Below, piece by piece: positions 29,953-49,394 of a stretch of 64,000 bases of DNA. The stretch covers positions 192,001 to 256,000 of the forward strand of contig JBFMAF010000055.1 of NCBI GenBank assembly GCA_040755995.1. The letters are read 5' to 3'. The stretch's first letter is position 1. Each line of letters starts with the position of its first letter. The notes beneath the pieces are model-generated. The model was not told the origin of the DNA, made no database searches, and was given only the letters and a program-made list of their open reading frames with translations. Both the position numbers and the translations under genes were made by a program. The DNA is from Acidobacteriota bacterium. Lineage in GTDB: Bacteria > Acidobacteriota > CAIWXX01.

Positions 29953-30674
29953 GGATCCGCTCAATCCTGGTTCAGCGGTTGATCGCGGTTCCCTTCAAGC
30001 AACTCTACTCACCGAACGGGATGCAGTGGCTCCGGCCCCTGGCACTGGAGCGAGATGACCGGCAGGCGATCGACAGCGAGCTCAGGCTCCTCGATTCAAT
30101 CGAGCACGAGATTCGCGAGATGGAGCAGACACTCATTCAAGCAGCATGGCAGGAGGATCGAGCTCGACTGTTGATGACGCTGTCCGGGATCGACTTCTGC
30201 GGTGCTCAGTCACTGATGGCGACGATGGGAAATCTCAGGCGGTTCGAGGACGGGGACCACTTCGCAAGTTATCTCGGGTTGGTGCCGTCGACGCGGGCGT
30301 CGGCAGATCACTGTTACCACGGGCCGATCACGAAGCAGGGGCGGAGTCATACCCGATGGATGTTGATTCAGGCCGCACAGCACGTGGCCGATCATCCCGG
30401 GACCGTTGGGACAGTTCTTCCGGCGGCTGCTCAAGAAGAAGAATCGTAACATCGCCGCCGTGGCGGTGGCGAGGAAGCTGGGCGTGATCGCGTACCACAT
30501 GCTCAAGAACAACGAGCCCTACCGGTACGCACTGCCGGATTCAACCGGGCAAGAGCCGGCGCAACTCCGATCCCAGGCGACAGGCCAAAGGCGTCTGCGA
30601 AGAGGAGACCAGCGCTGGGGGCCACCACGCCCCCCAGTGGCCGATCACCAGAGCTGCAATCCTCAGAGGTATTC
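29953..30674 (+). mobile_element. IS110/IS1111-family remnant, copy 1 (5'-truncated, frameshifted, internal deletion; right end at attC R'')
   Basis: HFASYLGLVP...GPITKQGRSHTRWMLIQAA, VAVARKL; ends cctcagaggtattc|GTTGGGC. Confidence 0.88.
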
Positions 30675-30693
30675 GTTGGGCCCCGCCCCACTT

Positions 30694-31197
30694 CTAGAAG
30701 TAGACGATCTCGCCAGTGGGGATGTAGCACCTGATGTAGGACCGCGTGCTTTCCGGGAATCGGTCGCTGAGAGGATGAAGCCGTTCCTCGATGACCGGGC
30801 CGAGATCTACGCGGGTCGGTACCTGTACCGCGAATTCGCGAATGCCGTAACTGTCTCGGGTGTAGTCACGTATCAGGGTGAGCTCGCCGTTCCTGACCAG
30901 GATTGTCATTCCGATCGGGGTGCCTTCCACGGAGCCGACTGTTGTGGAAAGGCCGAAAGAACCCCTGCCCGAGAGATACACATCGAGGAAGCGTTGGCGC
31001 TGAGCAGACTCGGATGAGGTTGACAGACGTTCAATGGCCGGATCATGAAGGGCAGCGGGTGTTCGGAAGGTACGATGGTATAGACCCTTGGCCGGGCCGT
31101 AGAACTGCGTGGCAGAGACGAGCACCAGGAAGAGAGCTGCTAGTAGGACCGCAGAAACGGCGAGGAGGATTCGGTATGACTTCGGGAGGGCTGCCAT
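30694..31197 (-). CDS. Hypothetical membrane-anchored cassette protein (copy A)
   Basis: N-terminal TM; near-identical to 33569..34069; GTTAGGC core before it, GCCCAAC after it. Confidence 0.75.
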   Translation of the reverse strand: MAALPKSYRILLAVSAVLLAALFLVLVSATQFYGPAKGLYHRTFRTPAALHDPAIERLSTSSESAQRQRFLDVYLSGRGSFGLSTTVGSVEGTPIGMTILVRNGELTLIRDYTRDSYGIREFAVQVPTRVDLGPVIEERLHPLSDRFPESTRSYIRCYIPTGEIVYF

Positions 31198-31210
31198 GTA
31201 TGCCTGCGCG

Positions 31211-31289
31211 GCCTAACGGATAAGGAGTTCAGCGGCGGCAGGGCTGGCCGCAGGCCAGACCTGACGTCCGCTGAAACGACGTGTCAGCC
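31211..31289 (-). other. attC site
   Basis: GGCTGAC acgtc gtttcagc...gctgaac tccttatcc GTTAGGC. Confidence 0.85.
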
Positions 31290-31811
31290 GACACGAGACG
31301 GACCGTCGGATGCGAGATTCGCAGCGACCCACGCTGCCTCGTTCGTGCCGGGTGTGAAGGAAAGATGCGGCTCGTCGGCATCCGGAGCTTCGAAGCGACG
31401 AGCGAGCTCGAGAAGCACCGCTTCGGTCACGCGCGGTCGCACCAATGTTGCCTCGTTCTCGCGCAATCGGCTGAGCGCCAGCGAGAGCGGTGCGTCGACG
31501 TAGACGACGAGACACTTCACCCCAAATCCGCTCGCAAGAGCACGATAGTCGTCGCGGAGAAAGCGAAAACAGTTTGTGTCGTCGACTACCACCGGGGCGC
31601 CGCGGGCGACCACATCCTCGGCTTTGCGAAGAGCTGTCTGGTGCGCCTCGGCCCAGACGGCGTCAGGGACGCCTAGACCGCCGTGGAGTCCCCGTCTCTC
31701 GTTGATGGCGTCGAGGCTCACGAGCACCGCACCCGTACGAGATGCGATGGCGCGAGCCAGAGTCGACTTACCCGCGAACGCGAGGCCGCAAAGCAGATAG
31801 ATACACACCAT
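31284..31811 (-). CDS. AAA_33 / predicted kinase (cassette)
   Basis: LLCGLAFAGKST, VSLDAI, VVDDTN. Confidence 0.85.
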   Translation of the reverse strand: MVCIYLLCGLAFAGKSTLARAIASRTGAVLVSLDAINERRGLHGGLGVPDAVWAEAHQTALRKAEDVVARGAPVVVDDTNCFRFLRDDYRALASGFGVKCLVVYVDAPLSLALSRLRENEATLVRPRVTEAVLLELARRFEAPDADEPHLSFTPGTNEAAWVAANLASDGPSRVG

Positions 31812-31823
31812 GGTGAGCGTGTC

Positions 31824-31842
31824 GGCTAACGGCTTGTTAGCC
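31824..31842 (-). other. Collapsed 19-bp attC (R'' and R' only)
   Basis: GGCTAAC aagcc GTTAGCC between two cassette genes. Confidence 0.7.
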
Positions 31843-31849
31843 GCTGGCC

Positions 31850-32287: not shown

Positions 32288-32309
32288 GCGCAGCTCCTTT
32301 CGTCCATGC

Positions 32310-32465
32310 GGCGAACCAATGTCTAGATGCTTTCCGGATAAACCCGGTTTCTTGCCCTTCCTTCCAGATGATACGCCGCGTAAGAAACCGCGTCAACTTG
32401 TTTGCCATCAAGGACTTGCGGAACTCTTGAGGCCTTTCCAGCTTCTTGGATGGTTTCCGCATAGC
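32310..32465 (-). promoter_or_regulatory. attI/Pc-like site (type 2) downstream of an intI tail
   Basis: tatgcggaaacc...TTGACG-17-TATCAT...tatccggaaagcatctagacattg-GTTCGCC. Confidence 0.65.
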
Positions 32466-32482
32466 ATGAATCGCTTCTTTCC

Positions 32483-32553
32483 TCACAGGGTGTCCGCTGG
32501 GCTTGGGGCCTCGCGGACTCAGAACGTCTGTATTGATAGTGCTGGTCCGGAAC
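32483..32553 (-). pseudogene. intI: Highly eroded integron integrase C-terminal tail
   Basis: RTSTINTDVLS...(frameshift) SPADTL* resembles [12 protein letters not shown]...SPAD. Confidence 0.55.
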
Positions 32554-32943
32554 TGTGCGTTGCTGCCCCCTTTCTCTCCTTGGCCAGAAGCATCGACAAA
32601 CCTCAAACGAAGACATCGAACTCTCTATTTGATAAGTGTCATGACCCCATGAGTATCTTGGTTTCCGTTGCCCTGGGCTCGCTTCCAAGGGCCGCGATTC
32701 TATGGGAGCACCTTCCCTAACCTCCAGCCCAGACATCCCCCTGGAGGGCGAGCCCGTGTCGGCCACCTCGGTTGGGCGTGGACCGTCTCGCGGGTCTGGT
32801 CGTCAACAGTGACCATGACGCCATATGCCTTGTCACTCTTGTACTTCGCCGGGACCGTGACGGTGAACCTGCTCGCCGGGGCCTCGTGGCGGAGACACGG
32901 AGAGGAATCTGCTCAGTCGCCGCCGGATCGTGTCAGTCGCAGG
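32554..32943. repeat. Spacer repeat X, copy A
   Basis: Homologous to 43254-43716 and 46876-47340; joined to IS110 at the same gatcgacagcgagc junction. Confidence 0.85.
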
Positions 32944-33549
32944 GATCGACAGCGAGCTCGGTCTCGCGGATTCAATCGAGCACGTGATTCGCGAGATGGA
33001 GCAGACACTCATTCAAGCAGCATGGCAGGAGGATCGAGCTCGACTGTTGATGACGCTGTCCGGGATCGACTTCTGCGGCGCACAGTCACCGATAGCGGCG
33101 ATGGGATATCTCAGGCGGTTCGTGGATGGGGACCACTTCGCAAGCTATCTCGGGTTGGTGCCTGCGACGCGGGCGTCGGCGAATCACTGTTACCACGGGC
33201 CGATCACGAAATAGGGGCGGAGTCACACCCGATGGACGCTGATTCAGGCCGCACAGCACCTGGCCGATCATCCCGGACCGTTGGGACAGTTCTTCCGCCG
33301 GTTGCTCAAGAAGAACAATCGCAACATCCCTGTCGTGGCGGTGGCGAGGAAACTGGCCGTGATCGCGTACCACATGCTCAAGAACAACGAGCCCTACCGG
33401 TACGCACTGCCGGATTCAACCGGGCAAAAGCTGGCGCGCCTCCGATCCCAGGCGACAGGCCAAAGGCGTCTGCGAAGAGGAGACCAGCGCTGGGGGCCAA
33501 CACGGCCCCCAGTGGTCGATCACTGGAGTTGCGATCCTCAGAGGTATTC
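32944..33549 (+). mobile_element. IS110-family remnant, copy 2
   Basis: Transposase_20 motifs, premature TAG at 33212, same internal deletion and right end as copy 1. Confidence 0.88.
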
Positions 33550-33568
33550 GTTGGGCCCCGCCCCACTT

Positions 33569-34069
33569 CTAGAAGTAGACGATCTCACCAGTGGGGATGT
33601 AGCACCTGATGTAGGACCGCGTGCTTTCCGGGAATCGGTCGTTGAGAGGATGAAGCAGTTCCTCGATGACTGTGCCGAGATCTACGCGGGTCGGTACCTG
33701 TACCGTGAATTCGCGAATGCCGTAACTGTCTCGGGTGTAGTCCCGTATCAGGGTGAGCTCGCCGTTCTTGACCAGGATTGTCATTCCGATTGGGGTGCCT
33801 TCCACGGAGCTGACTGTTGTGGAAAGGCCGAAAGAACCCCTGCCCGAGAGATAGACATCGAGGAAGCGTTGGCGCTGAGCAGACTCGGATGAGGTTGACA
33901 GAGGTTCAATGGCCGGATCATGAAGGGCAGCGGGCGTTCGGAAAGCACGATGGTACAGACCCTTGGCCGGGCCGTAGAACTGCATGGCAGAGACGAGCAC
34001 CAGGAAGAGAGCCGCTAGGACCGCAGAAACGGCGAGGAGGATTCGGTATGGCTTCGGGAGGGCTGCCAT
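33569..34069 (-). CDS. Hypothetical cassette protein (copy B of 30694..31197)
   Basis: 166 aa versus 167 aa with scattered substitutions. Confidence 0.75.
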   Translation of the reverse strand: MAALPKPYRILLAVSAVLAALFLVLVSAMQFYGPAKGLYHRAFRTPAALHDPAIEPLSTSSESAQRQRFLDVYLSGRGSFGLSTTVSSVEGTPIGMTILVKNGELTLIRDYTRDSYGIREFTVQVPTRVDLGTVIEELLHPLNDRFPESTRSYIRCYIPTGEIVYF

Positions 34070-34081
34070 GTATGCCCGGGG

Positions 34082-34153
34082 GCCTAACGCGGCGGCTCAC
34101 CTGCCGGGATGAAGCGCAGCGGGATCCTGGGCAGGTGCAGCCGCTTGTTGGGC
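34082..34153 (-). other. attC site
   Basis: GCCCAAC aagcggctgcacctgcc...ggcaggtgagccgccgc GTTAGGC. Confidence 0.88.
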
Positions 34154-34306: not shown

Positions 34307-34310
34307 TGCA

Positions 34311-34781: not shown

Positions 34782-34838
34782 GGTTCCACGCTATTCAATC
34801 TATTCTATCACGAAGGGCCCTCCTTCCCTGGTCGAACA

Positions 34839-34942
34839 CCGATCATCTCGGACCGTTGGGACAGTTCTTCCGAGGGTTGCCCAAGAAGAAGAATCGCAAC
34901 ATCGCCGTCGTGGCGGTGGCGAGGAAACTGGCCGTGATTGCG
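34839..34942 (+). mobile_element. IS110-family internal fragment, copy 3 (about 100 bp)
   Basis: GQFFRGLPKKKNRNIAVVAVARKLAVIA. Confidence 0.85.
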
Positions 34943-36488: not shown

Positions 36489-36552
36489 TCCCAACGAATA
36501 GCCTCAGCGACGCCGGCCCGTGGCCGGCGTCCAGTGGAGCGTGTTCTTGAAC
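36489..36552 (-). other. attC site whose R'' is supplied by element Y
   Basis: GTTCAAG aacacgctccactggacgccggcc...ggccggcgtcgctgag...GTTGGGA. Confidence 0.65.
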
Positions 36553-36618
36553 TGAGCCGCTGGCGCGCCAGTTTCGTGTTCATTCACTTCCGCCTGGGAA
36601 TCAAGCATAGTAGACCCC
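36546..36618 (+). mobile_element. Element Y terminus, copy 1
   Basis: ttgaactgagccgctggcgcg...ttcacttccgcc...gggaatcaa...tagacc, homologous to 49076-49150. Confidence 0.65.
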
Positions 36619-36620
36619 AA

Positions 36621-37041
36621 GACCACTTCGCAAGCTATCTCGGGTTGGTGCCTGCACCGCGGGCGTCGGCGAATCACTGTTACCACAGGCCGATCACGAA
36701 GCAGGGGCGCACTCATACCCGATGGATGTCGATTAAGGCGGCACAGCACCTGGCCGATCATCCCGGACCGTTGGGACAGTTCTTCCGACGGTTGCTCAAG
36801 AAGAAGAATCGCAACATCGCCGTCGTGGCGGTGGCGAGGAAGCCGGCCGTGATCGCGCACCACATGCTCAAGAACAACGAGCCCTACCGGTACGCACTGC
36901 CGGATTCAACCGGCCAAAAGCTGGCGCGCCTCCGATCCCAGACGACAGGCCAAAGGCGCAAGAGCGGACAATCGAAGGAGGCTGCCGAGAAGCGACGAGT
37001 CGGAACGCGGAGCCGCACGGTGCCCTCACTCGCAACGGTCT
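36621..37041 (+). mobile_element. IS110-family internal remnant, copy 4
   Basis: DHFASYLGLVP...RSRTVPSLATV. Confidence 0.87.
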
Positions 37042-37053
37042 TCTCAGGGTTCA

Positions 37054-38439
37054 CTATTGGCGCCCTCGCGGCTTCAGTAGCGTTCGCAGCCTTCTTGCAA
37101 TGAGGTGTATCTGTCGGTCGGGCCTTACCGCGTTGAAGGCGAGCTCCGCACATGCGTCGACGACGCGCGCCTCATCCTGCTTCCCCCGAAGGATGCACAG
37201 CCACTCTAGGATTTGTAATATGGCAACCATCAGATGAGCCGTATGATAGGAGCTTGGCGACGAGAACTCGGTTCGCAACGCCTCAAACGCTCGTTCAGCC
37301 TCCGCGAGTTTTCCCAAGGCCAAGTAACCCCTGCAGGTCGCCCCAAGAGCGTTAAGACGCCGGTGCCAGTATTCCTGGCTGTGCGGCTCTGACTTCCACT
37401 GCTCCAGCCTGCCCTCCAGCTTCGCAAGGAGCCGAGGGACCGAGGGCAGCCCTGGTCTGCTCCACAGTGCTGGGTAGGATGCGGCATTCAGTGCCTCAGT
37501 GGCGCGAATAATCTGGTCCTTCAGCGGCCGCCTCGACGCACTGCCCTCCTCGAATAGCTTCTGGCATCTCGCCCAGTCGGCATTGGAGGGATTCTCCATG
37601 CATCGCAGGAGTTCCACGAAAGCCTTTTCATATTTGGCTACCGGCATGCTGTGGCCGTCAAGCTGCTTCAAGGCCTCCGACGCCTCCTTTGATTTGCCGA
37701 GGCGTCGGAGAACACGTGCCTTCTTCAAGACCAATTCAGGAAGAACGGCGGGTCGAACGAGGGAGATCTGACGCGAGCCGAGGAGCTCCCTTACGATCTG
37801 GAGAGCGCGGTCCGGCTCTCCGCCTTCTATGAGTCGTTCTGCATCCTGGAGGCTTCGCGACGCAATCGCCTCGGTCGGGTTAACAGTCGTGGCGAGGAGC
37901 CACTCGCGGACACCTGTCCAGGGTGGCTTGGTGTACTTGATGGCTGGGCCTGCAAGGTTCCGCACGACTGAGCACCCTCTCTTCCCGAATTGCACCGCGC
38001 CCACTCTGTCGAGTCTCCCAAAGTCCAAGAGCGTCAGGCGCAGCGGAGTGGGGCCGCGATTCCTATGCCTGCATTCGACGAGACAGAGAACAACGGGCAG
38101 ACGCTGCAGCAACCAGTATTCATGGTGGCGCTCCCTCGCGCTGAACGCGATCTTGTCCCCGGGGCGGTCGAAGCTTGCGGCGCTCGTCTTCACCTGAAGC
38201 AGGATGTGCCCCATCGGGCGCTCCGTTGCCGGTAGCTCGACTGCGGCGTCGATGCCGATGTCCTGACCGGTCAACTCTCGCCAGATGAAGCCCGTTTCGA
38301 CGGCGCAACGGTGGACGTAAGCTACGCCGAGTCGATCGATTAGATCACTACCAGGATGTTCCGGAGTATTGGCGAGTGACGCATTGCGTCGACGTTGGAT
38401 CAGCAGGCTCCCACTCTGCTCGTGGATCCGGGCGCCCAA
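37054..38439 (-). CDS. DUF4365 (PD-(D/E)XK-like) domain plus helical/TPR-like region; start uncertain
   Basis: WRELTGQDIGIDAAVEL...LQVKT...YWLLQRLPVVL. Confidence 0.8.
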   Translation of the reverse strand: MGARIHEQSGSLLIQRRRNASLANTPEHPGSDLIDRLGVAYVHRCAVETGFIWRELTGQDIGIDAAVELPATERPMGHILLQVKTSAASFDRPGDKIAFSARERHHEYWLLQRLPVVLCLVECRHRNRGPTPLRLTLLDFGRLDRVGAVQFGKRGCSVVRNLAGPAIKYTKPPWTGVREWLLATTVNPTEAIASRSLQDAERLIEGGEPDRALQIVRELLGSRQISLVRPAVLPELVLKKARVLRRLGKSKEASEALKQLDGHSMPVAKYEKAFVELLRCMENPSNADWARCQKLFEEGSASRRPLKDQIIRATEALNAASYPALWSRPGLPSVPRLLAKLEGRLEQWKSEPHSQEYWHRRLNALGATCRGYLALGKLAEAERAFEALRTEFSSPSSYHTAHLMVAILQILEWLCILRGKQDEARVVDACAELAFNAVRPDRQIHLIARRLRTLLKPRGRQ

Positions 38440-38586
38440 CCAATGTTCATGTGGTTTCCAGATAGACCCCGTCTCTTACCTTTCCATCGAGATAGTACAC
38501 GGCGTACGGCCCCGTGTCAACGTGACTGGCATGAAACCATGAAGCAGTAATTCCTGTTCCGCTACAATCTCAGCGGCTGGTCTCGT
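38434..38586 (-). promoter_or_regulatory. attI/Pc-like site (type 2)
   Basis: TTGACA(38520-38515)-17-TACTAT(38497-38492)...tatctggaaaccacatgaacattg-GTTGGGC; aligns with 32310-32465. Confidence 0.7.
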
Positions 38587-39704
38587 GTATCGGACCGGAC
38601 GAGGGTGAAGAACCGGATCCACTCAATCCTGGCTCAACGGTTGATCGCGGTTCCCTTCAAGCAACTCTACTCACCGAAGGGGATTCAGTGGCTCCGGAAT
38701 CTGGCACTGGAGCGAGATGACCGGCAGGCGATCGACAGCGAGCTCAGGCCCCTAGATTCAATCGAGCACGAGATTCGCGAGACGGAGCAGACACTCATTC
38801 AGGCAGCATGGCAGGAGGATCGAGTTCGACTGTTGATGACGCGGTTCGGGATCGACTTCTGCGGCGCACAGTCATTGATAGAGGCGATGGGAGATCTCAG
38901 CCGATTCACGGATCGGGACCACTTCGCAAGCCATCTCGGGTTGGTGCCGTCGACGGGGGCGTCAGCGAATCACTGTCACCACGGGCCGATCACGAAGCAG
39001 GGGCGGAGTCAAACCCGATGGATGTTGATTCAGGCTGCACAGCACCTGGCCGATCATCCCGGACCGTTGGGACAGTTCTACGGAGGGGTGCCCAAGAAGA
39101 AGAATCGCAACATCGCCGTCGTGGCGGTGGCGAGGAAGCTGGCCGTGATCGCCTACCACATGCTCAAGAACAACCAGCCCTACCGGTACGCAATGCCGGA
39201 TTCAACCGGGCAAAAGCTGGTGCATCTCCGATCCCAGGCGACAGGCCAAAGGCGCAGGACCGGACCATCGAAGGAAGCTGCCGAGAACCGACGGGTCGGA
39301 GCGCAGAGCCGCACGGTGCCCTAACTCGCAACGGTCTACCAGCGTGAGGGAGTGCCCGCACTCCGAGCCCCCGAGTCGCTGCCGGCTGGCGAGAAGCGCA
39401 TGATCGAGGAACGCAAACTTCGACCGTTCAACCAGACTATCGACACCGCGCAAAGACACGAACAGAAGAGCCCCCACCGGCCGAATGCAGTCGCGAGTGT
39501 GAACTGAGATGAGAGATCTGCTGCGCCTCGACGACACGAGCCGACAGGCTCCTGAACATGACGCATCGAGGGCCCGCAACGACCGAGGCTCCCGTCTGCC
39601 AGGCTCACCGAATCAAGGATTCGTCTGTCAAGAAGAGACCACCGCTGGGGGCCTGTACGGCCCCCAGTGGCCGATCACAGGAGTTGCAATCCTCAGAGGT
39701 ATTC
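38587..39704 (+). mobile_element. IS110-family remnant, copy 5 (longest; intact right end)
   Basis: VSDRTRVKNRIHSIL...; premature TAA at 39322; natural stop 39507; ends cctcagaggtattc|GTTCGAA. Confidence 0.9.
39508..39704 (+). ncRNA. Candidate IS110/IS1111 bridge (seek) RNA region
   Basis: About 197-nt non-coding 3' end conserved with 48119-48315; hairpin ctgggggcc-N5-ggcccccag; TTGCAA near the terminus. Confidence 0.5.
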
Positions 39705-39712
39705 GTTCGAAG

Positions 39713-40564
39713 CTACTTCCGCAAATCCGGTACAAGCTCTGAGAGCCTTAACGATGGCTTCATCTTCCGAGGCCATTGAATCCCTCTCCTGGGTGTCCTC
39801 GTCCAGAAGCTTATCTTGTACTGCTCCAAGTCAAAGTGGACCTTGACGTCGTCGTTCTTGCCGTGAGCGTGATCGGATCTGCACGTCAGAAGAAGCGGAA
39901 CACCGAGACCGTGAGCAAACCCAACCTCGAAGTAGACTGATGGTCTTGCATACGTGAGGTCGGCGATTGCACAAGCACACTCCGTGATGCCCTCCAGAAT
40001 CGCCTCGGTAATGGTCTGCTTGGGTTCGGTCATATCTACTCGCACAGGCTCGTAACCCAAACTGGCGCATGCCGGAGCAAGTTGGTTGTCGTAAAGCATG
40101 TCTATATCCGAATGACCGAATGCACAAGCCACAAAGACGTTGGCTCGCCGCTCTGGCGCCGGGCGGAGAACGAGTCGCCGCTCCTCCTTGATGCTATTGG
40201 CAACTCGCTTGCCTTCGTGGGTGAGTTCAACAGCGACTTCTGAGAGGCTCCCATACGGAAGTAATAGCTTCTCCCCTGTGTCGCGCCGCGCCAAACCTGT
40301 ATAGCCTGGCCTCTGGATGAGCCCAACGGCAATGAGACCTTCCACAGTTCGCTCAAGCTCGGACAGCTTCGGCCTGTCAAGCGCGAAAAAGCGATCTTCC
40401 CGCGCTCTGTCCGCGACGACCCGAATAAAGGCGGAGAAATCCGACTCGGCAAAATCAACTGCCTTTACGACTCGCTGCAATGTCGGGAATGGGATGCTGC
40501 CCGTCTCCCCGAGTATGCGAAGCACCAATCTCTGGGGCCGATTCAATCGGATGTTGACTTTCAT
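39713..40564 (-). CDS. Nucleoside 2-deoxyribosyltransferase-like (TIR-like fold) protein (cassette)
   Basis: VFVACAF...VRVD...IADLTYARPSVYFEVGFAHGLG...HFDL. Confidence 0.8.
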   Translation of the reverse strand: MKVNIRLNRPQRLVLRILGETGSIPFPTLQRVVKAVDFAESDFSAFIRVVADRAREDRFFALDRPKLSELERTVEGLIAVGLIQRPGYTGLARRDTGEKLLLPYGSLSEVAVELTHEGKRVANSIKEERRLVLRPAPERRANVFVACAFGHSDIDMLYDNQLAPACASLGYEPVRVDMTEPKQTITEAILEGITECACAIADLTYARPSVYFEVGFAHGLGVPLLLTCRSDHAHGKNDDVKVHFDLEQYKISFWTRTPRRGIQWPRKMKPSLRLSELVPDLRK

Positions 40565-40579
40565 TCAGGTTCCTCATTG

Positions 40580-40638
40580 CTTCAACGTCGCGGATCACGC
40601 GCGGCTACAAGCCGTCGCGTGCATCCGGCTTGTTGGGC
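40580..40638 (-). other. attC site
   Basis: GCCCAAC aagccggatgcacgcgacggcttgtagccgcgcgtgatccgcgac GTTGAAG. Confidence 0.88.
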
Positions 40639-40640
40639 AC

Positions 40641-41381
40641 TCACATCCCTGTTCGGAGTTCATCGTCATCCTTGAAGAAATCCCGCAACTCTGGAGCGTG
40701 GCGGAGGGTGAAGTCCTTCGCTTCCCGAAGAAGCATGGACCTGTCTTCGGTCTTGAATCGGTGTTCTGGAAAAGGCCAGCCTGTGAGTTCGATTGCACCT
40801 TGGTGCACAACCAGCGTGCGCCATGCCGGCGCTTCCGTTGGGATCGTTCCAACCCGCTGCTGCACCGATTTGGGCGAGTCACCGCGTTGCGCGCAGTTCT
40901 GCTCCGTCTTCTTCTCGAGGTCCTTCCAATCAAACATCTCCGCGAGAGGCGTAGACGACGGATTCAAGACAAGCACGTGCGGAACACCCACGGCATCCTT
41001 GATCTCGGCAATGCCAAGCATGGCAGGCAAGACAGGCGCATACAGCTCCGCCTTTGCGACATCCGCATCAAGATTGTGTAGGATCAGGCATTGCCATACG
41101 CCACGAACCGTGAAGAAGAGGACTCTTGCCGTCGGGAACCATTCCATCTTCTCGGGGGCGCACGGTATCTGACGACATGAATCGCCCAGCGTTGTAAGGA
41201 CGCTGTGCAGTTCTCTCCGCAACTTCGGATGCGCGTACAGTGGATCATCGGACTCTCGACGGGGACCTTCGGGCCGAAGTCGATACGGATCGATGGATAC
41301 GGCGTCATTCCGAATCAGATCCGCCAACGGCCCCTTGCCTACGCCTCCAGGGCCGACGATGATGAGTGTCTTCTTGATCAT
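40641..41381 (-). CDS. P-loop protein, guanylate/NMP-kinase-like (cassette)
   Basis: N-terminal IIVGPGGVGKG, RLRPEG, RGDS. Confidence 0.65.
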   Translation of the reverse strand: MIKKTLIIVGPGGVGKGPLADLIRNDAVSIDPYRLRPEGPRRESDDPLYAHPKLRRELHSVLTTLGDSCRQIPCAPEKMEWFPTARVLFFTVRGVWQCLILHNLDADVAKAELYAPVLPAMLGIAEIKDAVGVPHVLVLNPSSTPLAEMFDWKDLEKKTEQNCAQRGDSPKSVQQRVGTIPTEAPAWRTLVVHQGAIELTGWPFPEHRFKTEDRSMLLREAKDFTLRHAPELRDFFKDDDELRTGM

Positions 41382-41395
41382 GATGTTCCCTCTAT

Positions 41396-41452
41396 GCCCA
41401 ACGTACGGCTCACCGGTGAGCGAAGCGAATGCAGGGCAGCCGATTGATGGGC
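41396..41452 (-). other. attC site (partly degenerate)
   Basis: GCCCATC aatcggct...ttcgcttcgctcaccggtgagccgtac GTTGGGC. Confidence 0.7.
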
Positions 41453-41472
41453 GCCGACTTCCACACCAGCTC

Positions 41473-42426
41473 TCAGTGCTCCCAGCGATCCCGGAGTTCG
41501 ATCAAGATATCCGCCAAATGGCTCTCGAACGCTCTATAGAGGTTCTCCACAAGTTCTCCACTAGCGACGACTGGAGGAGATTCTGGCAGAGGACCAACGC
41601 ACTCGATGATCAACCTGCCAGAAGCGTCGCTGATCGCATGCTTCTCCGTCACGCCGTCGTCAGAAGAAAATGAGGCACTTGCTTGTTGGCTGCCGCCAAT
41701 GGCCGGAAGCACGCAGTGCCACACAGGCACGGAGCGTCGAAGGGAGACTCTGGAAACGCCAGCCAAGACAGCGGAATCCGATGACTGGGAGCCAGTCACC
41801 TTCCGGTGTGTGGAGGCCAACACAGGGGCAACGTAATGGGTGATTTCGTCCCTTCGACTTATCAGCTGGCCAGCCCATCCGTCAAGCGCATCCGAAACAA
41901 GGGTAGATATCCTGTCGCCGGAGCCGAACATGTTGCGTAGCTTGGCGTACCGATGCACACCGACTTTTCCGAGGGAGTAACTAGCGACGAGTCGCGCAAG
42001 ATGGTCAAGGGTACTTCGCATTGAAGAAAGCAGCGCTTCAAATTCCGACTCAAGTCTCGCATCTTGGAGAGAGATCGTGAACGAGGCGTTGGCATTCGGA
42101 AGTAACGAACCGACGTCGTCTCCTGAGGAATCGGTGGTCCCTCGTTTCTCGACCTCGGCAAACCGTGATTCGTGCTCGCTGAGGACCTCCCTCCACCGTT
42201 CGAGACGGTATCTAGATCCCACCAGCTTGCGATACAGGCTCGCCACTCGTGCTAGGTACTCCTCTAGCGCTACGTGAATGAGTTCGGGAGCGGCGCCACC
42301 TCGCGGGATAATCCTATCGATTAGCAGGTCAAGACGACTGAATTCGGCCGGAGCAGATAGCGTCTCGTGCGTTGTGTTGGGTTGCAGGGATATCTTGGAA
42401 AGGAGTTGGTCGATCATATTGGCCAT
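41473..42426 (-). CDS. Putative HEPN-like (Cthe_2314-type) protein (cassette)
   Basis: FEALLSSMRSTLDHLARLV and RDEITH (Rx4H). Confidence 0.55.
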   Translation of the reverse strand: MANMIDQLLSKISLQPNTTHETLSAPAEFSRLDLLIDRIIPRGGAAPELIHVALEEYLARVASLYRKLVGSRYRLERWREVLSEHESRFAEVEKRGTTDSSGDDVGSLLPNANASFTISLQDARLESEFEALLSSMRSTLDHLARLVASYSLGKVGVHRYAKLRNMFGSGDRISTLVSDALDGWAGQLISRRDEITHYVAPVLASTHRKVTGSQSSDSAVLAGVSRVSLRRSVPVWHCVLPAIGGSQQASASFSSDDGVTEKHAISDASGRLIIECVGPLPESPPVVASGELVENLYRAFESHLADILIELRDRWEH

Positions 42427-42484
42427 GGGTCACATCCGCGCTGTCAATTCACTGGATCCCGCCTCTAACAACTGTTCCTCGTTC

Positions 42485-42650
42485 GCCCAACAATGATTAG
42501 ATTGATCCGCATAGGATGCGGAACTTCACTTTCCTCCCGGTATCGCACACCGCTGATTCATCTGGCAGTTTCGCGATAACCCCTTCTGTTTCGGTCGCTT
42601 CTGCCCTATGCTTTGACTCATCCTCCAATCCTATGCGGATCGGCATAACC
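42485..42650 (-). promoter_or_regulatory. attI-like site (type 1) downstream of intI
   Basis: 14-bp inverted repeat 42504-42517/42628-42641; tatgcggatcaatctaatcatt-GTTGGGC. Confidence 0.7.
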
Positions 42651-42664
42651 ACCTCCTCGTTGCC

Positions 42665-43027
42665 TCAAAGTCCCTCAACCGGGCTGCGTACGCCGGCCGG
42701 GCCACGGTTGAGGACATGGGTATAGATCATCGTCGTCGAAACGTCGCTGTGACCTGGGAGTTCCTGGGTGGCCCGCCCGGGTTGCCCTGCGCGATGGCCC
42801 ACCGAGTTCACCGGACCAAGTGAAGGGTGCACCTCCACCGGTTCTCCCGCGAAGAGGTTGAGGAGTCGAGGTAGCATCCCCTCGGTGTCCAGCACTGTCC
42901 AATAGCTCTCTTCGGGATGCCAGCGCCGATCATGGATAGTCTTGATCTTCTCCACTCGTTGCCACTCATACGGCACGATCACTCTCAACCGCCCCCTGGG
43001 TCCTGGATCAATGACCACAGAACTCAT
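42665..43027 (-). pseudogene. intI: Internally deleted integron integrase (N-terminal extension fused to the last ~33 aa)
   Basis: [33 protein letters not shown]. Confidence 0.8.
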
Positions 43028-43044
43028 CGCTGCGAACTCCCTGC

Positions 43045-43073
43045 ATTCTGAACAGAGGCGACGAATGTGTCAA
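43045..43073 (-). promoter_or_regulatory. Putative intI promoter
   Basis: TTGACA-17-CAGAAT, then GGGAG RBS and ATG at 43027. Confidence 0.6.
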
Positions 43074-43175
43074 CAAGGCTTGCCCATGCCCGTCGAGCCG
43101 GCGAGCATTCGCGCGACTCCTCATGGCTTTCCGGCGGCTTAGATGGTCTCTACATGACATGCGTCGCTTCTTTCC

Positions 43176-43253
43176 TCACAAGGTGCCCGCCGGGCTTCTG
43201 GCCCCTCGGCCTCCGAGATTCAGAAGGTTCCTGTTGATCATGTTTGTCCGCAA
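43176..43253 (-). pseudogene. intI: Eroded intI C-terminal tail
   Basis: LRTNMINRNLLNLGGRGARSPAGTL*. Confidence 0.6.
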
Positions 43254-43716
43254 CGGCACGTTGCTGCCCCCCTCCTCTCCCTCGCCAGAAGCATCGACAA
43301 GCCCGAAACCAAGGCATGGACTCCTCTCCTACAAATAAATAGTGTCGTGACCCCATGGGTATCTTGGCGTCCCTTGACTTCGGCTCGCTTCCAGGGGCCG
43401 GGATTTTACGGGTTCACCTTTCCTGACCTCCAGCCCCGGCATCCCCCCGGGGGGCGCGCCCGTGTGGGCAACCTGGTTTCGGCGTGGACGGCATCGTCTC
43501 GCTGGTCTGGCCGTCAACCGTGACCATGACGCCGTATGCCTTGTCACTCTTGCACTTCGCCGGGTTCCTGACGGTGAACCTGCTCGTCGAGGCCTTATGG
43601 GGTTGATCGGGCGAACAGCGGGGACGCCTCGCGATGCCGGACTAGGCGCCCGGGCCTCGTGGCGGACGCACGGAGAGCAGTCTGCTCAGTCGCCGCCGGA
43701 TAGTGCCAGTCGCCGG
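43254..43716. repeat. Spacer repeat X, copy B
   Basis: Homologous to copies A and C. Confidence 0.85.
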
Positions 43717-44399
43717 GATCGACAGCGAGCTTAGGCTCCTGGATACAATGGAGCACGAGATTCGCGAGATGGAGCAGACACTCATTCAAGCAGCATGGCA
43801 GGAGGATCGAGTTCGACTGTTGATGACGCTGTCCGGGATCGACTTCTGCGGCGCACAGTCGCCGGTTGCGACGATGGGAGATCCCAGGCGGTTCGAGGAT
43901 GCGGACCACTTCGCAAGCTATCTCGGGTTGGTGCCTGCGACGCGGGCGTCGGCGAATCACTGTTACCACGGGCCGATCACGAAGTAGGGGCGGAGTCACA
44001 CCCGATGGACGCTGATTCAGGCCGCACAGCACCCGGCCGATCATCCCGGACCGTTGGGACAGTTCTTCCGACGGTTGCTCAAGAAGAAGAATCGCAACAT
44101 CGCCCTCGTGGCGGTGGCGAGGAAGCTGGCCGTGATCGCGTCCCACATGCTCAAGAACAACGAGCCCTACCGGTACGCGCTGCCGGATTCAACCGGGCAA
44201 GAGCTGGCGCATCTCCGATCCCAGGCGACAGGCCAAAAACGCAAGACCGGACCATCGCAGGAAGCTGCCGAGAAGCGACGCGTCGGAACGCGGAGCCGCA
44301 CGGTGCCCTCACTCGCAACGGTCTACCAGCGTGAGGGAGTGCCCCTACTCCGAGCCCCAGAATCGCCGCCGCCTGGCGAGAAGCGAATGATCGAGGAAC
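43717..44399 (+). mobile_element. IS110-family remnant, copy 6
   Basis: Same motifs; premature TAG at 43985; 3'-truncated. Confidence 0.88.
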
Positions 44400-44460
44400 C
44401 CTCCCGTTCAAGGTAGAAGGCGTCGCCCTGCGCTACTGGAAATGCGATGAACTGGGGCAT
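44400..44460 (-). pseudogene. N-terminal stub of a ComEC/MBL-fold-like cassette gene
   Basis: MPQFIAFPVAQGDAFYLER; preceded by a collapsed attC-like GGGAAC...GTTACAA (44471-44512). Confidence 0.45.
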
Positions 44461-44515
44461 GTCTTGCTCGTTGTAACGACAGGCATGACGCGCGAGAAAT
44501 GGCACGTTCCCCGCA

Positions 44516-46201
44516 CTATTTCTCGTCGCTGTCCATGCCTTCGTTAGATTGTATTTCGACCAGGCCTCTTTCGAGGAGGGCCTGAAACGCTTCCTGCCTC
44601 CTGTGTTCGTCGCTCGCCTTCATCATTCTGAGGCCCACATCTCGAAAGCACTCGCTGGACAGGCCATGGCCAATGTCCGCGCCGGCCAACGTGATTTTCA
44701 AATACTCCCGATAAAATGGGACCTCGTGAGACAATGAACCAGTAGCTTCCAAAACATTACACACCGCACTGAACGTCCTTCTTGCTGATTTCCTGGTAAT
44801 GCGCAATGTAGTGCACCAGAGAAGAGGTCTCAGCACGTAATCCAACACCCATTCTTCCATAGCTATGAGGGGGAGTCCTTCATGATTCTTACTATGATTC
44901 GCGATTCGATCTATCAGGGCGACAACACGAGGCGCAATCGCTCCAGATTCACGCCTCGGGCCGTCAATGCGGTCAAAGAGGAGTGCGTCAATTTCCCGGA
45001 ACATAACCTCCAAGTCACCTATTCCCATCACCCCTCGAAGCCTATCTATGCCGGAGGCCCCAGTAACTACCTTTGCTGAGGCGAGGATATAGTCGGCTCT
45101 TTCCTCTAAGAGATGCATCCTTTCTTTGTAAGGGAGAATCTCAGTTTCCAAACCCCGAGCGAACACCTTGGCCCGCGTGACCTCCGAAAAGGCGCGGACC
45201 ATTTGGCTATGCGGATAGTAAAGGCGTAGATGAATCGGATCACGAAGAGCGCAAAGCTCCACAATAGAACGTTGCTTAGCGTTGAGAGAGCCCCAGCGTC
45301 TCTCGAACCAAGGGTATCCTAAACTTAAGATGCTAGCGTCCGGTTCTTCTCCAACAATGTGAAACAATTCATCACACACATAACCGGTCGGTTCATTCTC
45401 CGCAAGATGGAGCAGCATGTACATCCCGTTCGCTCGCTTATCAGAATCGGAAAGGCCACAAAAAAACAGCGCGGAAGAAACAAGGAAGGCGAATTCCCGT
45501 TCAGAAAAGGCCGAAAGCTTTGCATTCTCGATGAGCATTTGCCGCGCCGCCATAAGCTGTTGCGGATGACTTAGGTTGTCGCCATCTTCCACCGAATATG
45601 CCACCCACCGCAGCGTCCTCGAGTTGATATCCTCTCTTCCCTCCTTATCCTTGATAACGGCTTCGCATGCGGATTTTGCGTCATCTGCTTTCGGCGCTCT
45701 CAGTTGATGGCCAGTGCTCCAATCAGTATTGAACGGTAGGCGATTACCGTTCCGTACCTCAACTGACAGCCGATCCAGTTCATCTTGGTGGTAGCACTCG
45801 AAATATGGTGTGTCAGAAAGACTATCAGGTACGACCGAATGTGGGACCATATGTGCAACCATTACCCTTGACGCTGACGCTTGTCTTTCGACTTCAATCG
45901 CAGGCAGATATTCTGCGCGGCACCACACTGAATCGCGAAAACGATCATCGACGGACAATACTACAAAGCGAGAGCGAATCAGAGCCGAGCTCACCACTTC
46001 TTGAACTCTTCGATCGCGTAGATCTTGATCATCATCATGCCAAACCATGACGCCGCGGGCGCCAAGTTCTTGAGCAAGCCTCTTCGAGTGTTCGTCTCCT
46101 CTGTTATGACTAATGAACGCATCGAACTGAAACGAACGGTCACCGTATTCTTTCGACCATGAAACTGGGAGAAACGGATGCAAATCTATGTGCCCGATCA
46201 T
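44516..46201 (-). CDS. TIR-domain protein with large unknown C-terminal region (AT-richer cassette)
   Basis: FDAFISHNRGD...LAQELGARGVMVWHD...LIRSRFVVL...DSVWCRAEY. Confidence 0.85.
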   Translation of the reverse strand: MIGHIDLHPFLPVSWSKEYGDRSFQFDAFISHNRGDEHSKRLAQELGARGVMVWHDDDQDLRDRRVQEVVSSALIRSRFVVLSVDDRFRDSVWCRAEYLPAIEVERQASASRVMVAHMVPHSVVPDSLSDTPYFECYHQDELDRLSVEVRNGNRLPFNTDWSTGHQLRAPKADDAKSACEAVIKDKEGREDINSRTLRWVAYSVEDGDNLSHPQQLMAARQMLIENAKLSAFSEREFAFLVSSALFFCGLSDSDKRANGMYMLLHLAENEPTGYVCDELFHIVGEEPDASILSLGYPWFERRWGSLNAKQRSIVELCALRDPIHLRLYYPHSQMVRAFSEVTRAKVFARGLETEILPYKERMHLLEERADYILASAKVVTGASGIDRLRGVMGIGDLEVMFREIDALLFDRIDGPRRESGAIAPRVVALIDRIANHSKNHEGLPLIAMEEWVLDYVLRPLLWCTTLRITRKSARRTFSAVCNVLEATGSLSHEVPFYREYLKITLAGADIGHGLSSECFRDVGLRMMKASDEHRRQEAFQALLERGLVEIQSNEGMDSDEK

Positions 46202-46254
46202 GCCGAAACCTCAAGAACAAAAATACGTCACTACTCCCGACACCACACCAAGCG

Positions 46255-46420
46255 ATCTAACAATAACTAGATTGATCCGCATAAGGTGCGGGACTTCGCT
46301 TTGGTGCCGGTATCGCAGGCCGCTGATTCATCTGGCGGTTTCGCGACAACCCCTTCTGTTTCAGTCATTTGTGTGCTATCCTTTGACTTGTCCTCCGATC
46401 TTATGCGGATCGGCATAACA
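46255..46420 (-). promoter_or_regulatory. attI-like site (type 1) downstream of intI
   Basis: 12-bp inverted repeat 46274-46285/46400-46411; tatgcggatcaatctagttatt-GTTAGAT. Confidence 0.7.
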
Positions 46421-46434
46421 ACCTCCTCGTTGCC

Positions 46435-46875
46435 TCAATGTCCGTCAACCGGGCTGCGTACGCCGGCTGGGCCGCGGCTGAGGGCATGGGTATAGATCAT
46501 CGTCGTCGAAACGTCGCTGTGGCCTGGGAGTTCCCGGACCGTGCGGATATCGCACCTGCTTTTGACCGAGTGGGTGGCGAAGGAACGGTCGAAGGTGTTG
46601 CACGTAGCCCTCTTGGTCAAGCCAGCGTTCACCACCACTGCGTCCCCGACGGCTTTCTGAATGAGCGATTCACCCACATGGTGCCGTCCTTCCTCACCGG
46701 TCTTCCGGTTCCTCCGCCGGTTCTCCTGCGGAAAGATCCATTGCCACCGCCAGTCCTTCGACGCAGTGGGGTACTTGCGGTCGAGGGCATCCGGCAACAG
46801 GACGCGACCCTAGCTTTCCAGCAGGTCCCGTTCGTGGACCATCTTGACTGTCTTGAGATGCTCCTGAAGCGGGTG
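46435..46875 (-). pseudogene. intI: Integron integrase C-terminal half, inactivated
   Basis: IntI patch LPDALDRKYP...WRWQWIFP...GRHH; HxxR mutated (TCNTFDRSFATH); internal TAG; TTMIYTH. Confidence 0.9.
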
Positions 46876-47340
46876 TCCCTCGCCAGAAGCATCGACAAGC
46901 ATGAAACCAAGGCATCGACTGCTCTCCTACAATTAATAAGTGTCGTGACCCCCTGGGTATCTTGGCATCCGTTCACCTCGGCTCGCTTCCAAGGGCCGCG
47001 ATTCTACGGCTTCACCTTTCCTACTAGCCTCCAGCCCCGGCATCCCCCCTAGGGGGGCGATCCCGTGTGGGCAACCTCGTTTCGGCGTGGACGGCATCGT
47101 CTCGCTGGTCCGGCCGTCAACCGTGACCATGACGCCATATGCCTTGTCACTCTTGCACTTCGCCGGGATCGTGAGGGTGAACCTGCTCGTCGGGGCCTTA
47201 TCGGGTTGATCAGGCGAACAGCGGGACCCCCTCCCGCGGTGTCGCCGACGCGCCGCCATGCCGAGTGAAACGCCCGGGCCTCGTGGCGGAGGCACGGAGA
47301 GGAGTCTGCTCAGTCGCCGCCGGATGGTGTCAGTAGCAGG
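46876..47340. repeat. Spacer repeat X, copy C
   Basis: Homologous to copies A and B. Confidence 0.85.
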
Positions 47341-48315
47341 GATCGACAGCGAGCTCAGGCTCCTGGATTCAATCCAGCACGAGATTCGCGAGATGGAGCA
47401 GACACTCATTCAAGCAGCATGGCAGGAGGATCGAGTGCGACTGTTGATGACGCTGTCCGGGATCCATTTCTACGGCGCACAGTCACTGATAGCGGCGATG
47501 GGAGATCCCAGACGGTTCCAGGATGGGGACCACTTCGCAAGCTATCTCGGGTTGGTGCCGTCGACGCGGGCGTCGGCGAATGGCTATTACCACGGGCCGA
47601 CCACGAAGCAGGGGCGGAGTCACACCCGATGGATGTTGATTCAGGCCGCACGGCACCTGGCCGGTCATCCCGGTCCGTTGGGACAGTTCTTCCGACGGCT
47701 GCTCAAGAAGAAGAATCGCAACATCGCCGTCGTGGCGGTGGCGAGGAAGCCGGCCGCAATCGCGTACCACATCCTCAAGAACAACGAGCCCCACCGGTAC
47801 GCACTGCCGGATTCAACCGGGGAAGAGCTGGCGCGCCTCCGATCCCAGGCGACAGGCCAAAGGCGCAAGACCGGATCATCGAAGGAAGCTGCTGGGAAGC
47901 GACGGGTCGGAACGCGGAGCCGCACGGTGCCCTCACTCGCAACGGTCTACCAGCGCGAAGGAGTGCCCGGACTCCGAGCCCCAGAGTCGCTGCCGGCTGG
48001 CGAGAAGCGCATGATCGAGGAACGCAAACTTCGACCGTTCATCAAGAGTATCAACACCGCCCAAAGACGCGAGCAGAAGAGCCCCCAGCGGACGAATGCA
48101 AACGCGAGTGGGAACTGAGATGAGAGATCTGCTGAGCCTCGACGACACCAGCCGGCAGGCTCCTGACCAAGACGCATGGATGACCCGCAACGACCGAGGC
48201 TCCCGTCTGTCAGGCCCACCGAATCACGGATACGTCTGTCAAGAAGAGCCCAGCGCTGGGGGCCAGCACCGCCCGCGGTGGCCGATCACCGGAGTTGCAG
48301 TCCTCAGAGGTGCTC
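47341..48315 (+). mobile_element. IS110-family remnant, copy 7 (open C-terminal frame to 48118; intact right end)
   Basis: Transposase_20 motifs; ends cctcagaggtgctc|GTTGGCG. Confidence 0.9.
48119..48315 (+). ncRNA. Candidate bridge/seek RNA region, second copy
   Basis: Colinear with 39508-39704. Confidence 0.5.
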
Positions 48316-48349
48316 GTTGGCGCACCCTGAATGTACCCAGGTGGATGGC

Positions 48350-48991
48350 TCAGCTCCTCAGCTTGCTTTCTCTGCTAATGTCTATCAAAGAAAACGTCCT
48401 GATGACTTCAGTCGCAATCTGTCTGATGGACGGCGGAACGGGGTCATTCAGAGGAGACTTCTCGCCCGTTGCGCTTCTTATCCACCATCCGGCTGTGTTT
48501 TGTCGGCTCAGATCATAGTATTTCTCGTCAAGAGAGGCATCGACATGTGCTCCGCCATCCCGGTCAGCTGTTTCCAGGATGAGCCTCTTGCGGGTGAAGG
48601 ACTCTTTGTTCTGATCGACAATTACCTTCTTGCGGTTCCACCAGTTGTCGATGCTCACGAGGTTGTAACTGGGGTTGTCGGAAGGCACGTATGTGATCTC
48701 TTTGTCCGGCATGTCTACTCGAGTGCTCAACAAGCCCAAATGGGTTAGAAGATTCTCCGGATCGTACGGCCGACAGGTATCTACAATGCTGATGTGCTCC
48801 AATTTCAATAGCCGGAGCAGAGACTTCTGGTTGTTCGTGTTGCTGAAAATAAGCCGGATCTTTACGGCCATGTCCTGGGCGTAGTGGTACTCCCCACGGT
48901 CGTACAATTCGCAAAGGCCGGAAAGTTTGTTGACCTGATCTGAGAGCTTGTTCACGAGTTCAACTTTTGTTACTGGCTTCTTGGTGTCCAT
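48350..48991 (-). CDS. Conserved hypothetical cassette protein (DGGAHVD motif)
   Basis: YDRGE...AVKIR...WWN...TRKRLILETADRDGGAHVD...IRQIA; GGAG RBS; AT-richer. Confidence 0.8.
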   Translation of the reverse strand: MDTKKPVTKVELVNKLSDQVNKLSGLCELYDRGEYHYAQDMAVKIRLIFSNTNNQKSLLRLLKLEHISIVDTCRPYDPENLLTHLGLLSTRVDMPDKEITYVPSDNPSYNLVSIDNWWNRKKVIVDQNKESFTRKRLILETADRDGGAHVDASLDEKYYDLSRQNTAGWWIRSATGEKSPLNDPVPPSIRQIATEVIRTFSLIDISRESKLRS

Positions 48992-49044
48992 GATATCTCC
49001 TCATCCTGAGGCCTCACCGATGAGAATCATTTCCGATTGGGTGC

Positions 49045-49082
49045 GCCCAACACCGCGGGTCAGCTGCATCCGCTTGTTGAAC
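49045..49082 (-). other. Centrally deleted attC with R'' from element Y
   Basis: GTTCAAC aagcggatgcagctgacccgcggt GTTGGGC (compare the full-length family member at 11527-11653). Confidence 0.65.
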
Positions 49083-49202
49083 TGAGCCGCTGGCGCGGCG
49101 GGTTGCTGATCCTTCACTTCCGCCGGGGAATCAACCATGGTAGACCGCCCGTGTCCTTTCCGATGAGCCGTATCGCTGTCCCCGTTTCTCAGGAGGTCCA
49201 CT
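49076..49202 (+). mobile_element. Element Y terminus, copy 2
   Basis: Homologous to 36546-36618; leads into an AGGAGG RBS. Confidence 0.6.
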
Positions 49203-49394
49203 ATGTCTACACTCCGCGGACGTATGATCGAAGACATGCAGCTTCCCGGGCTTTCACCTCGCACGCAGCAGCCCTATGCCCGAGCGGTCGGCAAGCTAGC
49301 CGAGCACCATCATAGGTCTCCGGACCTGATCACGCAAGATCAAACGCGACTGGACCGCCGTCAATCTGGTCAAGCCCAAGCTTCGACCTCCTGA
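49203..49394 (+). pseudogene. N-terminal SAM-like domain (Phage_int_SAM_4 type) of a tyrosine recombinase, truncated
   Basis: MSTLRGRMIEDMQLPGLSPRTQQPYARAVGKLAEHHHRSPDLIT. Confidence 0.8.

Follow-up and report, generated by a model that had tools for sequence, protein, structure and literature searches.

Two integron heads in one co-oriented cassette array within a decayed, IS110/IS1111-scrambled chromosomal integron of an Acidobacteriota bacterium

The 64,000-nucleotide stretch of DNA analysed here (the window; C55:192001-256000, where C-numbers denote contigs of the 7.7 Mb source genome of an Acidobacteriota bacterium) carries, between 29.9 and 49.4 kb, a dead chromosomal integron scrambled by insertion sequences (IS), in which nothing can recombine today. 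Two heads, each composed of a remnant of the integrase gene intI and an attI docking site, stand in tandem within one co-oriented array, with a different set of cassettes, joined at canonical G/TT junctions, behind each, as a first-pass annotation made from the sequence alone had proposed. Seven truncated copies of one IS110/IS1111-family element (A-G) are scattered along the array, and three of them (B, F and G) share an identical junction between a spacer, X, and a 5'-truncated transposase beginning at about residue 179 of 437. The sharing of a junction that already contains a truncated transposase argues that B, F and G were copied as DNA after the death of the IS and were not transposed. 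We consider it probable that an inverted-type integron has decayed here, after the IS entered attC sites and a head was subsequently duplicated as ordinary DNA.

Two intI-attI heads in a single array

Nearly every sizeable open reading frame (ORF) between 29.9 and 49.4 kb lies on the minus strand, the array being one of minus-strand integron cassettes. The reference IntI paralog of this genome (C36:325604-326929) is full length with a single TAA stop and scores 231 + 221 bits against TIGR02249 (cut-off 265). A tblastn search of the window's contig with this full-length protein recovered intI in modules F and G only; modules B and E contain none, so that the remnant which the first-pass annotation had placed at 33549-32310 is absent. 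The pairing of intI with attI, claimed for three modules, holds for G (46255-48320) and F (42485-44399), and B and E have neither. The components of the two heads are as follows.

46441-46872, minus strand: intI remnant G, residues 299-441, with one in-frame stop and a degraded catalytic box
46255-46440, minus strand: attI_G, core GTTAGAT at 46261-46255
44477-46260, minus strand: TIR-domain cassette at attI_G, attC at 44549-44471 (-23.7 kcal/mol)
43045-43073, minus strand: intI promoter-like site of head F, TTGACA-17-CAGAAT, 10/12
42668-43066, minus strand: intI remnant F, residues 2-96 (43066-42782) joined to residues 403-442 (42787-42668)
42485-42667, minus strand: attI_F, conserved ~180 nt ending ...TCTAATCATTGTT, core GTTGGGC at 42491-42485
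39708-42490, minus strand: three cassettes behind attI_F (317, 246 and 283 aa), attC at 41452-41396 and 40638-40580

Remnant G, which had been recognised as intI in the most complete module, matches positions 193-313 of 315 of TIGR02249 (160 bits, E 8e-47). The stretch ALDRKYP..SKDWRWQW.FP in the IntI translations is what we take to be the IntI-specific segment. The internal deletion junction of remnant F recurs at the C34 locus and is lacking in G. No functional integrase is present in the assembly, every intI being broken: those on C34, C47 and C33 carry deletions, and that on C36 carries the TAA stop.

Over ~180 nt, starting at the stop codon of intI and reaching ...TCTAATTATTGTT, five heads (G, F and those on C34, C36 and C33) can be aligned, and they split right after GTT, with cores GTTAGAT (G), GTTGGGC (F), GTTAGGC (C34), GTTAGGC (C36) and GTTCGGC (C33). 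Alignment up to GTT followed by divergence identifies these segments as attI sites with different first cassettes. With attI located downstream of it, intI reads in the same direction as the cassettes, which is the reverse-integron geometry, with intI upstream of its cassettes, that had been described from the sequence at the outset. At least five paralogous intI-attI platforms are distributed over four contigs of the genome, together with a fragment on C47, and attI_G and attI_F are the closest attI pair (86.8% identical; 82.8-83.3% in the other comparisons). All five attI regions contain a 12-bp inverted repeat (GATCCGCATAAG ... CTTATGCGGATC) with arms ~130 nt apart and a local 7-bp hairpin ~20 nt ahead of the GTT core; both may serve this attI type in integrase binding or in folding.

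The R'' of the TIR-domain cassette, ATCTAAC, complements the attI_G junction GTTAGAT, and each R'' behind attI_F fits the start of its own cassette (first R'' GCCCATC, junction GTTGGGC). Behind the other heads we found one attC after C36, two after C34 and three candidates after C33, all called by a home-made scan with a background of 0.19 matches per 5 kb of strand. Another attC stands nearer the left edge of the window's array.

34082-34153, minus strand: attC, GCCCAAC...GTTAGGC, constrained fold -17.5 kcal/mol

An N-terminal extension of ~110 aa precedes the canonical IntI start in this genome (TIGR02249 begins at residue 113). Pfam finds no family for it, and two Elusimicrobia loci (L018, L021) likewise match it, with 44-46% identity over residues 1-290. 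Two more intI/attI remnants lie at contig ends (C33:135862-135984 and C47:1-545), and on C33 foreign sequence bearing inverted repeats takes the place of intI shortly before the end of the contig. Given these terminal positions, the head count may exceed the assembled one, and the true number and layout of heads in the genome may be larger than assembled.

Seven dead copies of one IS110/IS1111-family element

Self-BLAST, repeat search and alignment recovered the repeat blocks of the recurring module (82-94% identity, E-values to 0) and resolved seven truncated direct copies of the IS on the plus strand, where four had been counted; A, C and D had been missed. PF02371, the IS110-family C-terminal domain, is found in six plus-strand ORFs of the window, in keeping with the transposase having been read as antisense to the cassettes, and the remnants match positions 187-343 of 343 of NF033542 ('IS110 family RNA-guided transposase'). 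The nearest intact relative in a large protein database, P0002 (437 aa), is 83% identical and carries both PF01548 and PF02371, from which we assign the IS lineage to the IS110/IS1111 family and regard the window copies as fragments. Residue ranges below are numbered on P0002 (tblastn).

29946-30679, plus strand: remnant A, residues 139-354, with a 367-nt internal deletion, right end kept
32939-33554, plus strand: remnant B, residues 179-354, with the 367-nt deletion of A, right end abutting R'' GGCCCAAC
34839-34942, plus strand: remnant C, residues 288-320 only
36621-37043, plus strand: remnant D, residues 242-382
38581-39707, plus strand: remnant E, residues 130-437, with one TAA stop, the downstream non-coding region and the right end, which abuts R'' CTTCGAAC of the 283-aa cassette
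43715-44399, plus strand: remnant F, residues 179-406; right end, non-coding region and R'' deleted
47336-48320, plus strand: remnant G, residues ~179-437, stop at 48116-48118, with a 202-nt downstream non-coding region and the right end, which abuts R'' GCGCCAAC of a 213-aa cassette

Residues 1-129, which hold the DEDD catalytic part, are covered by none of the seven window copies, and the left end is likewise kept in none. PF01548 is absent from the window and has a single occurrence in the genome, within a different IS on C24 that is 57% identical to P0002. Since no copy reaches the DEDD part, all seven are dead, and with both intI genes reduced to the fragments listed above, the assertion that every recombinase copy here is defunct holds for IS and integrase alike.

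Between the transposase stop and the end of homology, E and G retain ~200 nt of conserved non-coding DNA. Pairwise identities among all copies span 87-96% without clear grouping, a pattern that, at the level of sequence, points to one old episode followed by decay. This IS has a match in one of 60 kin genomes besides the source genome (48% identity) and in two of 400 genomes of the phylum (52-57% identity), and the right-end regions of the 50%-identical relatives do not align with it.

IS right ends lie directly after cassette R'' sites

In all four copies that keep the right end (A, B, E and G), this end directly follows the R'' (AAC) of a cassette, and the orientation is the same throughout. 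A and B being duplicates of each other, the four right ends represent three independent junctions, which read on the minus strand GGCCCAAC/GAATACC (A, B), CTTCGAAC/GAATACC (E) and GCGCCAAC/GAGCACC (G). The corresponding cassette starts and R'' sites pair as TTAGGCC with GGCCCAAC (A/B), TTGAAGC with GCTTCGAAC (E) and TTGGGCGC with GCGCCAAC (G); complementarity of each R'' to the start of its own cassette identifies these as true R'' sites. The proposal that each unit sits immediately after an attC R'' is therefore upheld for every right end and has no bearing on F, from which both right end and R'' are missing. By analogy, the placement agrees with the known preference of IS1111-type elements for attC. 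The left flank of the IS target is lost in all copies.

A stretch to the left of remnant D bears on where the IS ends.

36496-36616: stretch left of remnant D, holding the 73-nt repeat D14 (36544-36616 = 49074-49146)

On the minus strand, 36496-36520 contains a GC-rich hairpin, GCTGAGGCTATTC and GTTGGGA, a mirror image of the IS right-end junction ...CAGAGGTATTC GTTGGGC. This mirror arm may be the right arm of the targeted attC, the IS left-end repeat or an inverted solo end. A genome-wide search for an empty attC of the mirror-arm type (up to two mismatches) returned the four IS right ends and the site at 36505, the remaining matches being scattered and devoid of a conserved IS flank.

Spacer X and a dispersed promoter/leader repeat

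32423-32938: spacer X, copy B, full length; its left part (X-left, 32423-32580) is also found at C38 and C36:105k
43097-43714: spacer X, copy F, full length
46876-47335: spacer X, copy G, X-left deleted
32308-32413, minus strand: promoter/leader repeat, copy B, TTGACG-17-TATCAT at 32396-32368
38432-38535, minus strand: promoter/leader repeat, copy E, TTGACA-17-TACTAT at 38520-38492

The sites in B and E that had been taken for attI with a Pc-like promoter are copies of a dispersed repeat. Its unit of ~86 nt comprises TTGAC(G/A), a 17-nt spacer, a -10 box of TAYNAT type and a conserved leader of ~55 nt, which contains a small covarying hairpin (AAAC-NGG-GTTT versus AGAC-GGG-GTCT) and ends ...GAACATTGGT; the genes downstream are unrelated. 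Seven more copies occur on other contigs (C4:107028-107112, C9:40617-40663, C28:59887-59972, C31:35194-35275, C36:104994-105270, C38:63781-63973 and C56:10966-11050). X-left and the ~86-nt unit together form the dispersed repeat, and none of the seven copies has an IS or intI nearby. Rfam has no match for the unit, for which a mobile promoter and a small leader RNA are both conceivable identities.

In head F, X-left abuts the intI promoter, and homology with the other intI loci begins ~10 nt upstream of its -35 box. The three best promoter matches (10/12) between 29.9 and 49.45 kb all lie on the minus strand (43073, 38520 and 32396), facing down the array, one just past the IS remnant (plus X where present) in each of B, E and F. 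As predicted from sequence, these three strong sigma-70-like promoters may restart transcription of the cassettes behind them.

Several other identities for X and the promoter repeat were tried and rejected. The repeat is not a hidden attI, the 5-kb stretches downstream of its seven other copies containing two attC-like matches in all against the background of 0.19 per 5 kb, and the homology between B and C38 continuing past GTT. X is not a degraded N-terminal half of the transposase, as the window lacks PF01548 and tblastn with P0002 yields nothing before residue 130. Neither X nor the promoter repeat is part of the IS: both are absent from 24 metagenome loci of IS relatives and from L009 and L014, the sole match in that comparison being 32 nt inside the transposase. 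Lastly, X-right does not derive from the gene diverging from X at C36:105k, since tblastn gives no match to that gene in the window.

Order of events

We propose the following history for the decayed inverted-type integron. An IS110/IS1111-family element with a non-coding region downstream of its transposase would have entered several attC sites beside R'', always in one orientation. One copy would then have lost its 5' half and become joined to X just upstream of an intI promoter. Homologous recombination among the direct IS copies, whether as unequal crossing-over or as gene conversion, would have copied the segment 'truncated transposase - X - intI - attI'. This would have left the array with two heads, F and G, and mixed left and right IS halves in A and B. 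The cassettes at one or both heads would have been exchanged afterwards, and deletions would then have taken away the greater part of each intI gene, the 5' half of every IS copy and some cassette sequence; G presumably lost X-left and IntI residues 1-298, and F lost IntI residues 97-402 and the IS right end. The canonical first cassette at each head implies that at least one attI was still used, or that cassettes turned over, which would have happened while an integrase existed somewhere in the genome.

The mosaic structure of A and B bears on the copying step. A block of right IS part and 167-aa cassette is present twice at 94% identity and ends exactly at the cassette boundary C/GTTAGGC.

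30062-31218 = 32939-34089: duplicated block

A and B have the 367-nt deletion and the flanking cassette in common and differ in their left parts, which are E-like in A and X in B. Such a mosaic of halves is the kind of product made by recombination between direct repeats. The tandem amplification that the first-pass annotation had offered as an alternative to a mobile unit fits as well.

Several observations weigh against this history. Unequal crossing-over predicts that the cassettes after F and G were once the same, and no trace of this is left, self-BLAST detecting nothing in common between 44400-46260 and 39700-42490. The deletion junction of F recurs at C34 but not in G, yet F and G are the closest attI pair; this conflict requires either gene conversion or a history of its own. 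The X copy of B matches those of F and G at only 82-84% identity, against 91-96% for the adjoining transposase part, and B may therefore have a separate origin. The exact right boundary of the IS is uncertain by ~14 nt because of the mirror-image arm at 36496-36520; the non-coding region downstream of the transposase folds no more stably than shuffled sequences (z +1.2); and promoter-like sites in total are no more numerous than in shuffles (5 versus 5.1). The assembly, moreover, is of metagenome type, in 56 contigs, and the intI loci on C33 and C47 lie at contig ends.

Alternative explanations

A bolder account holds that, where the integrase is co-oriented with the cassettes, a copied 'promoter - intI - attI' segment makes a working multi-headed integron, with several docking sites and promoters per array, that both heads were used after copying, and that dead platforms of the F type spread as non-autonomous units. 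On this account the canonical first cassette at each head reflects such use after copying, and the occurrence of the internally deleted F-type platform at two loci (F and C34) means that platforms can spread non-autonomously. We regard this account as doubtful.

Fusion of two separate paralogous integrons, each with its own cassettes, joined head-to-tail through IS recombination or an intervening deletion, would be in keeping with the five or more paralogous heads on four contigs, with the lack of anything in common between the cassettes behind F and G, and with a deletion allele that F shares with C34 and G does not. It is unlikely, however, in view of the X/truncated-transposase junction common to F and G and of their mutually closest attI sites, which together imply that both platforms are copies of one IS-linked unit; fusion would then alter only the place of copying.

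An assembly artefact, in which variants of a single IS-intI module from different strains were strung into a spurious tandem, is quite improbable. The metagenome-type assembly, the breaking of contigs at other intI loci and the 5-12% divergence between copies, which is within strain or paralog variation, could all accompany such an error. Every module, however, has unique flanks, its own truncation points and different cassettes, the contig extends over 433,605 bases, and the junctions follow integron logic, with R'' fitting each cassette start, as random chimeras would not.

The first-pass annotation favoured a composite mobile unit of IS110, X, intI and attI that transposed repeatedly into attC and seeded new platforms. 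The contiguity of the parts in G, between a cassette R'' and the GTT of attI, and the IS right end beside R'' at three independent junctions would suit such a unit. Against it, the left end and the catalytic domain are found in none of the copies, and the single truncation junction of B, F and G means that the unit was already dead when copied, so that these modules spread as dead DNA. intI and attI are present in only two modules, X is part of a repeat that occurs elsewhere in the genome without IS or intI, and the IS relatives (the 24 metagenome loci, L009 and L014) lack X, the promoter repeat and a matching right end. The search of relatives for linked intact units, which that annotation had suggested, found X in none of 80 intI-relative loci and a distant IS110-type gene in two. 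Repeated insertion of such a composite is accordingly a very improbable origin of the modules.

Least credible, too, is integrase-mediated spread of the block from cassette R'' to attI GTT as a giant cassette moved by an IntI acting in trans: the G block is bounded by R'' AAC and attI G/TT, the internally deleted F-type platform is found at two loci and the A/B duplication stops exactly at a G/TT cassette boundary, but platform homology starts ~10 nt upstream of the intI promoter instead of at an R''-like site, an R'' side is missing from F, the assembly contains no functional IntI, and gene conversion explains the shared deletion more simply.

Cassette cargo and flanking genes

27317-29899, plus strand: left flank, AAA_16/TPR gene
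37054-38439, minus strand: cassette cargo, DUF4365 (PADLOC Aga_REase-like N-terminus) + TPR
39713-40564, minus strand: cassette cargo, 283-aa protein with a TIR-effector-like/deoxyribosyltransferase-like domain
44516-46201, minus strand: cassette cargo, 561-aa TIR_2 protein with PADLOC PDC-S66/SAVED_TIR matches
49203-49394, plus strand: tyrosine recombinase N-terminal fragment, 63 aa (PF13495, E 3e-6)
49414-51693, minus strand: right flank, PMT_2 glycosyltransferase gene

Defence-like domains occur in three cassettes (TIR_2, DUF4365/TPR and TIR-effector-like/deoxyribosyltransferase-like). Integron cassettes are reported to store anti-phage genes, and these three cassettes fit that pattern. Further cassette products include a PIN protein, an AAA_33 kinase, an FKBP protein and many without a family. 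The PF13495 fragment, from a tyrosine recombinase other than IntI, lies at the upstream limit of the array, antisense to the cassettes and beside the 73-nt repeat at 49074-49146. Rfam detected no intron over 28-51 kb, where its sole sub-threshold match was to Ocean-V (25 bits against a gathering score of 75).

Comparison with known systems

Elements of the IS1111 type have subterminal inverted repeats, extended by 7 bp on the left and by 3 bp on the right, a seekRNA of which some segments are complementary to the target, and a circular intermediate. According to Siddiquee et al. (PMC11187229), the type is marked by a long non-coding region downstream of the transposase, and ISKpn4, ISPst6 and ISPa25 are directed to one end of attC sites (citing Tetu & Holmes 2008 and Post & Hall 2009). 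The IS described here resembles this group in belonging to a DEDD-type family, in its downstream non-coding region and in its one-orientation insertion at one end of attC. It differs in that all seven copies are 5'-truncated and without a left end, and the likeness is one of described features.

Cury 2016 (PMC4889954) describes an inverted group of integron-integrases, from Treponema and others, in which intI runs in the direction of the cassettes. The present heads are likewise co-oriented with their cassettes and have attI downstream of intI, but differ from that group in standing two in tandem per array and in the ~110-aa N-terminal extension of IntI. Decay of the kind seen here, known also from IS-disrupted arrays and CALIN, is common according to the sections of Nemergut 2008 (PMC2426708) and Cury 2016 (PMC4889954) consulted: about one third of intI genes are pseudogenes, two or more intI occur in ~20% of bacteria with integrons, and IS lie inside 23% of complete integrons (Cury 2016). 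intI pseudogenes, several intI per genome and IS in the array are found here too, whereas a second intI-attI head inside a co-oriented array is not described in those sections. Among our 80 intI-relative loci from other species, one has a second intI-like fragment.

Group IIC-attC introns with outward promoters (PMC3001079) are mobile elements in attC that can supply a promoter to downstream cassettes; unlike theirs, the promoters found here come from the dispersed repeat and from intI, not from the IS. In papers on integrons that mention two attI sites, which seem to deal with the biochemistry of attI recombination or with epidemiology, we found, judging by title and opening of the abstract, no second head described inside a co-oriented array. 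Each part of the system is known (attC-targeting IS, intI pseudogenes, multiple integrons per genome, inverted orientation), and the two-head array is an unusual but mechanistically ordinary rearrangement.

Implications

The usual drawing of an integron shows a single integrase, a single docking site and a single promoter, a picture that has led most cassettes of long arrays to be thought silent. The example reported here is a fossil in a metagenome assembly, and its value lies in being a documented case and a prompt to seek live versions. A tandem head in a co-oriented array would show how simply an array can gain additional entry points and promoters, through ordinary duplication aided by IS copies, and it bears on the expression and reshuffling of large environmental arrays. 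If the doubtful multi-headed account were true, cassettes deep in an array would be expressed, and new ones would be captured at more than one place.

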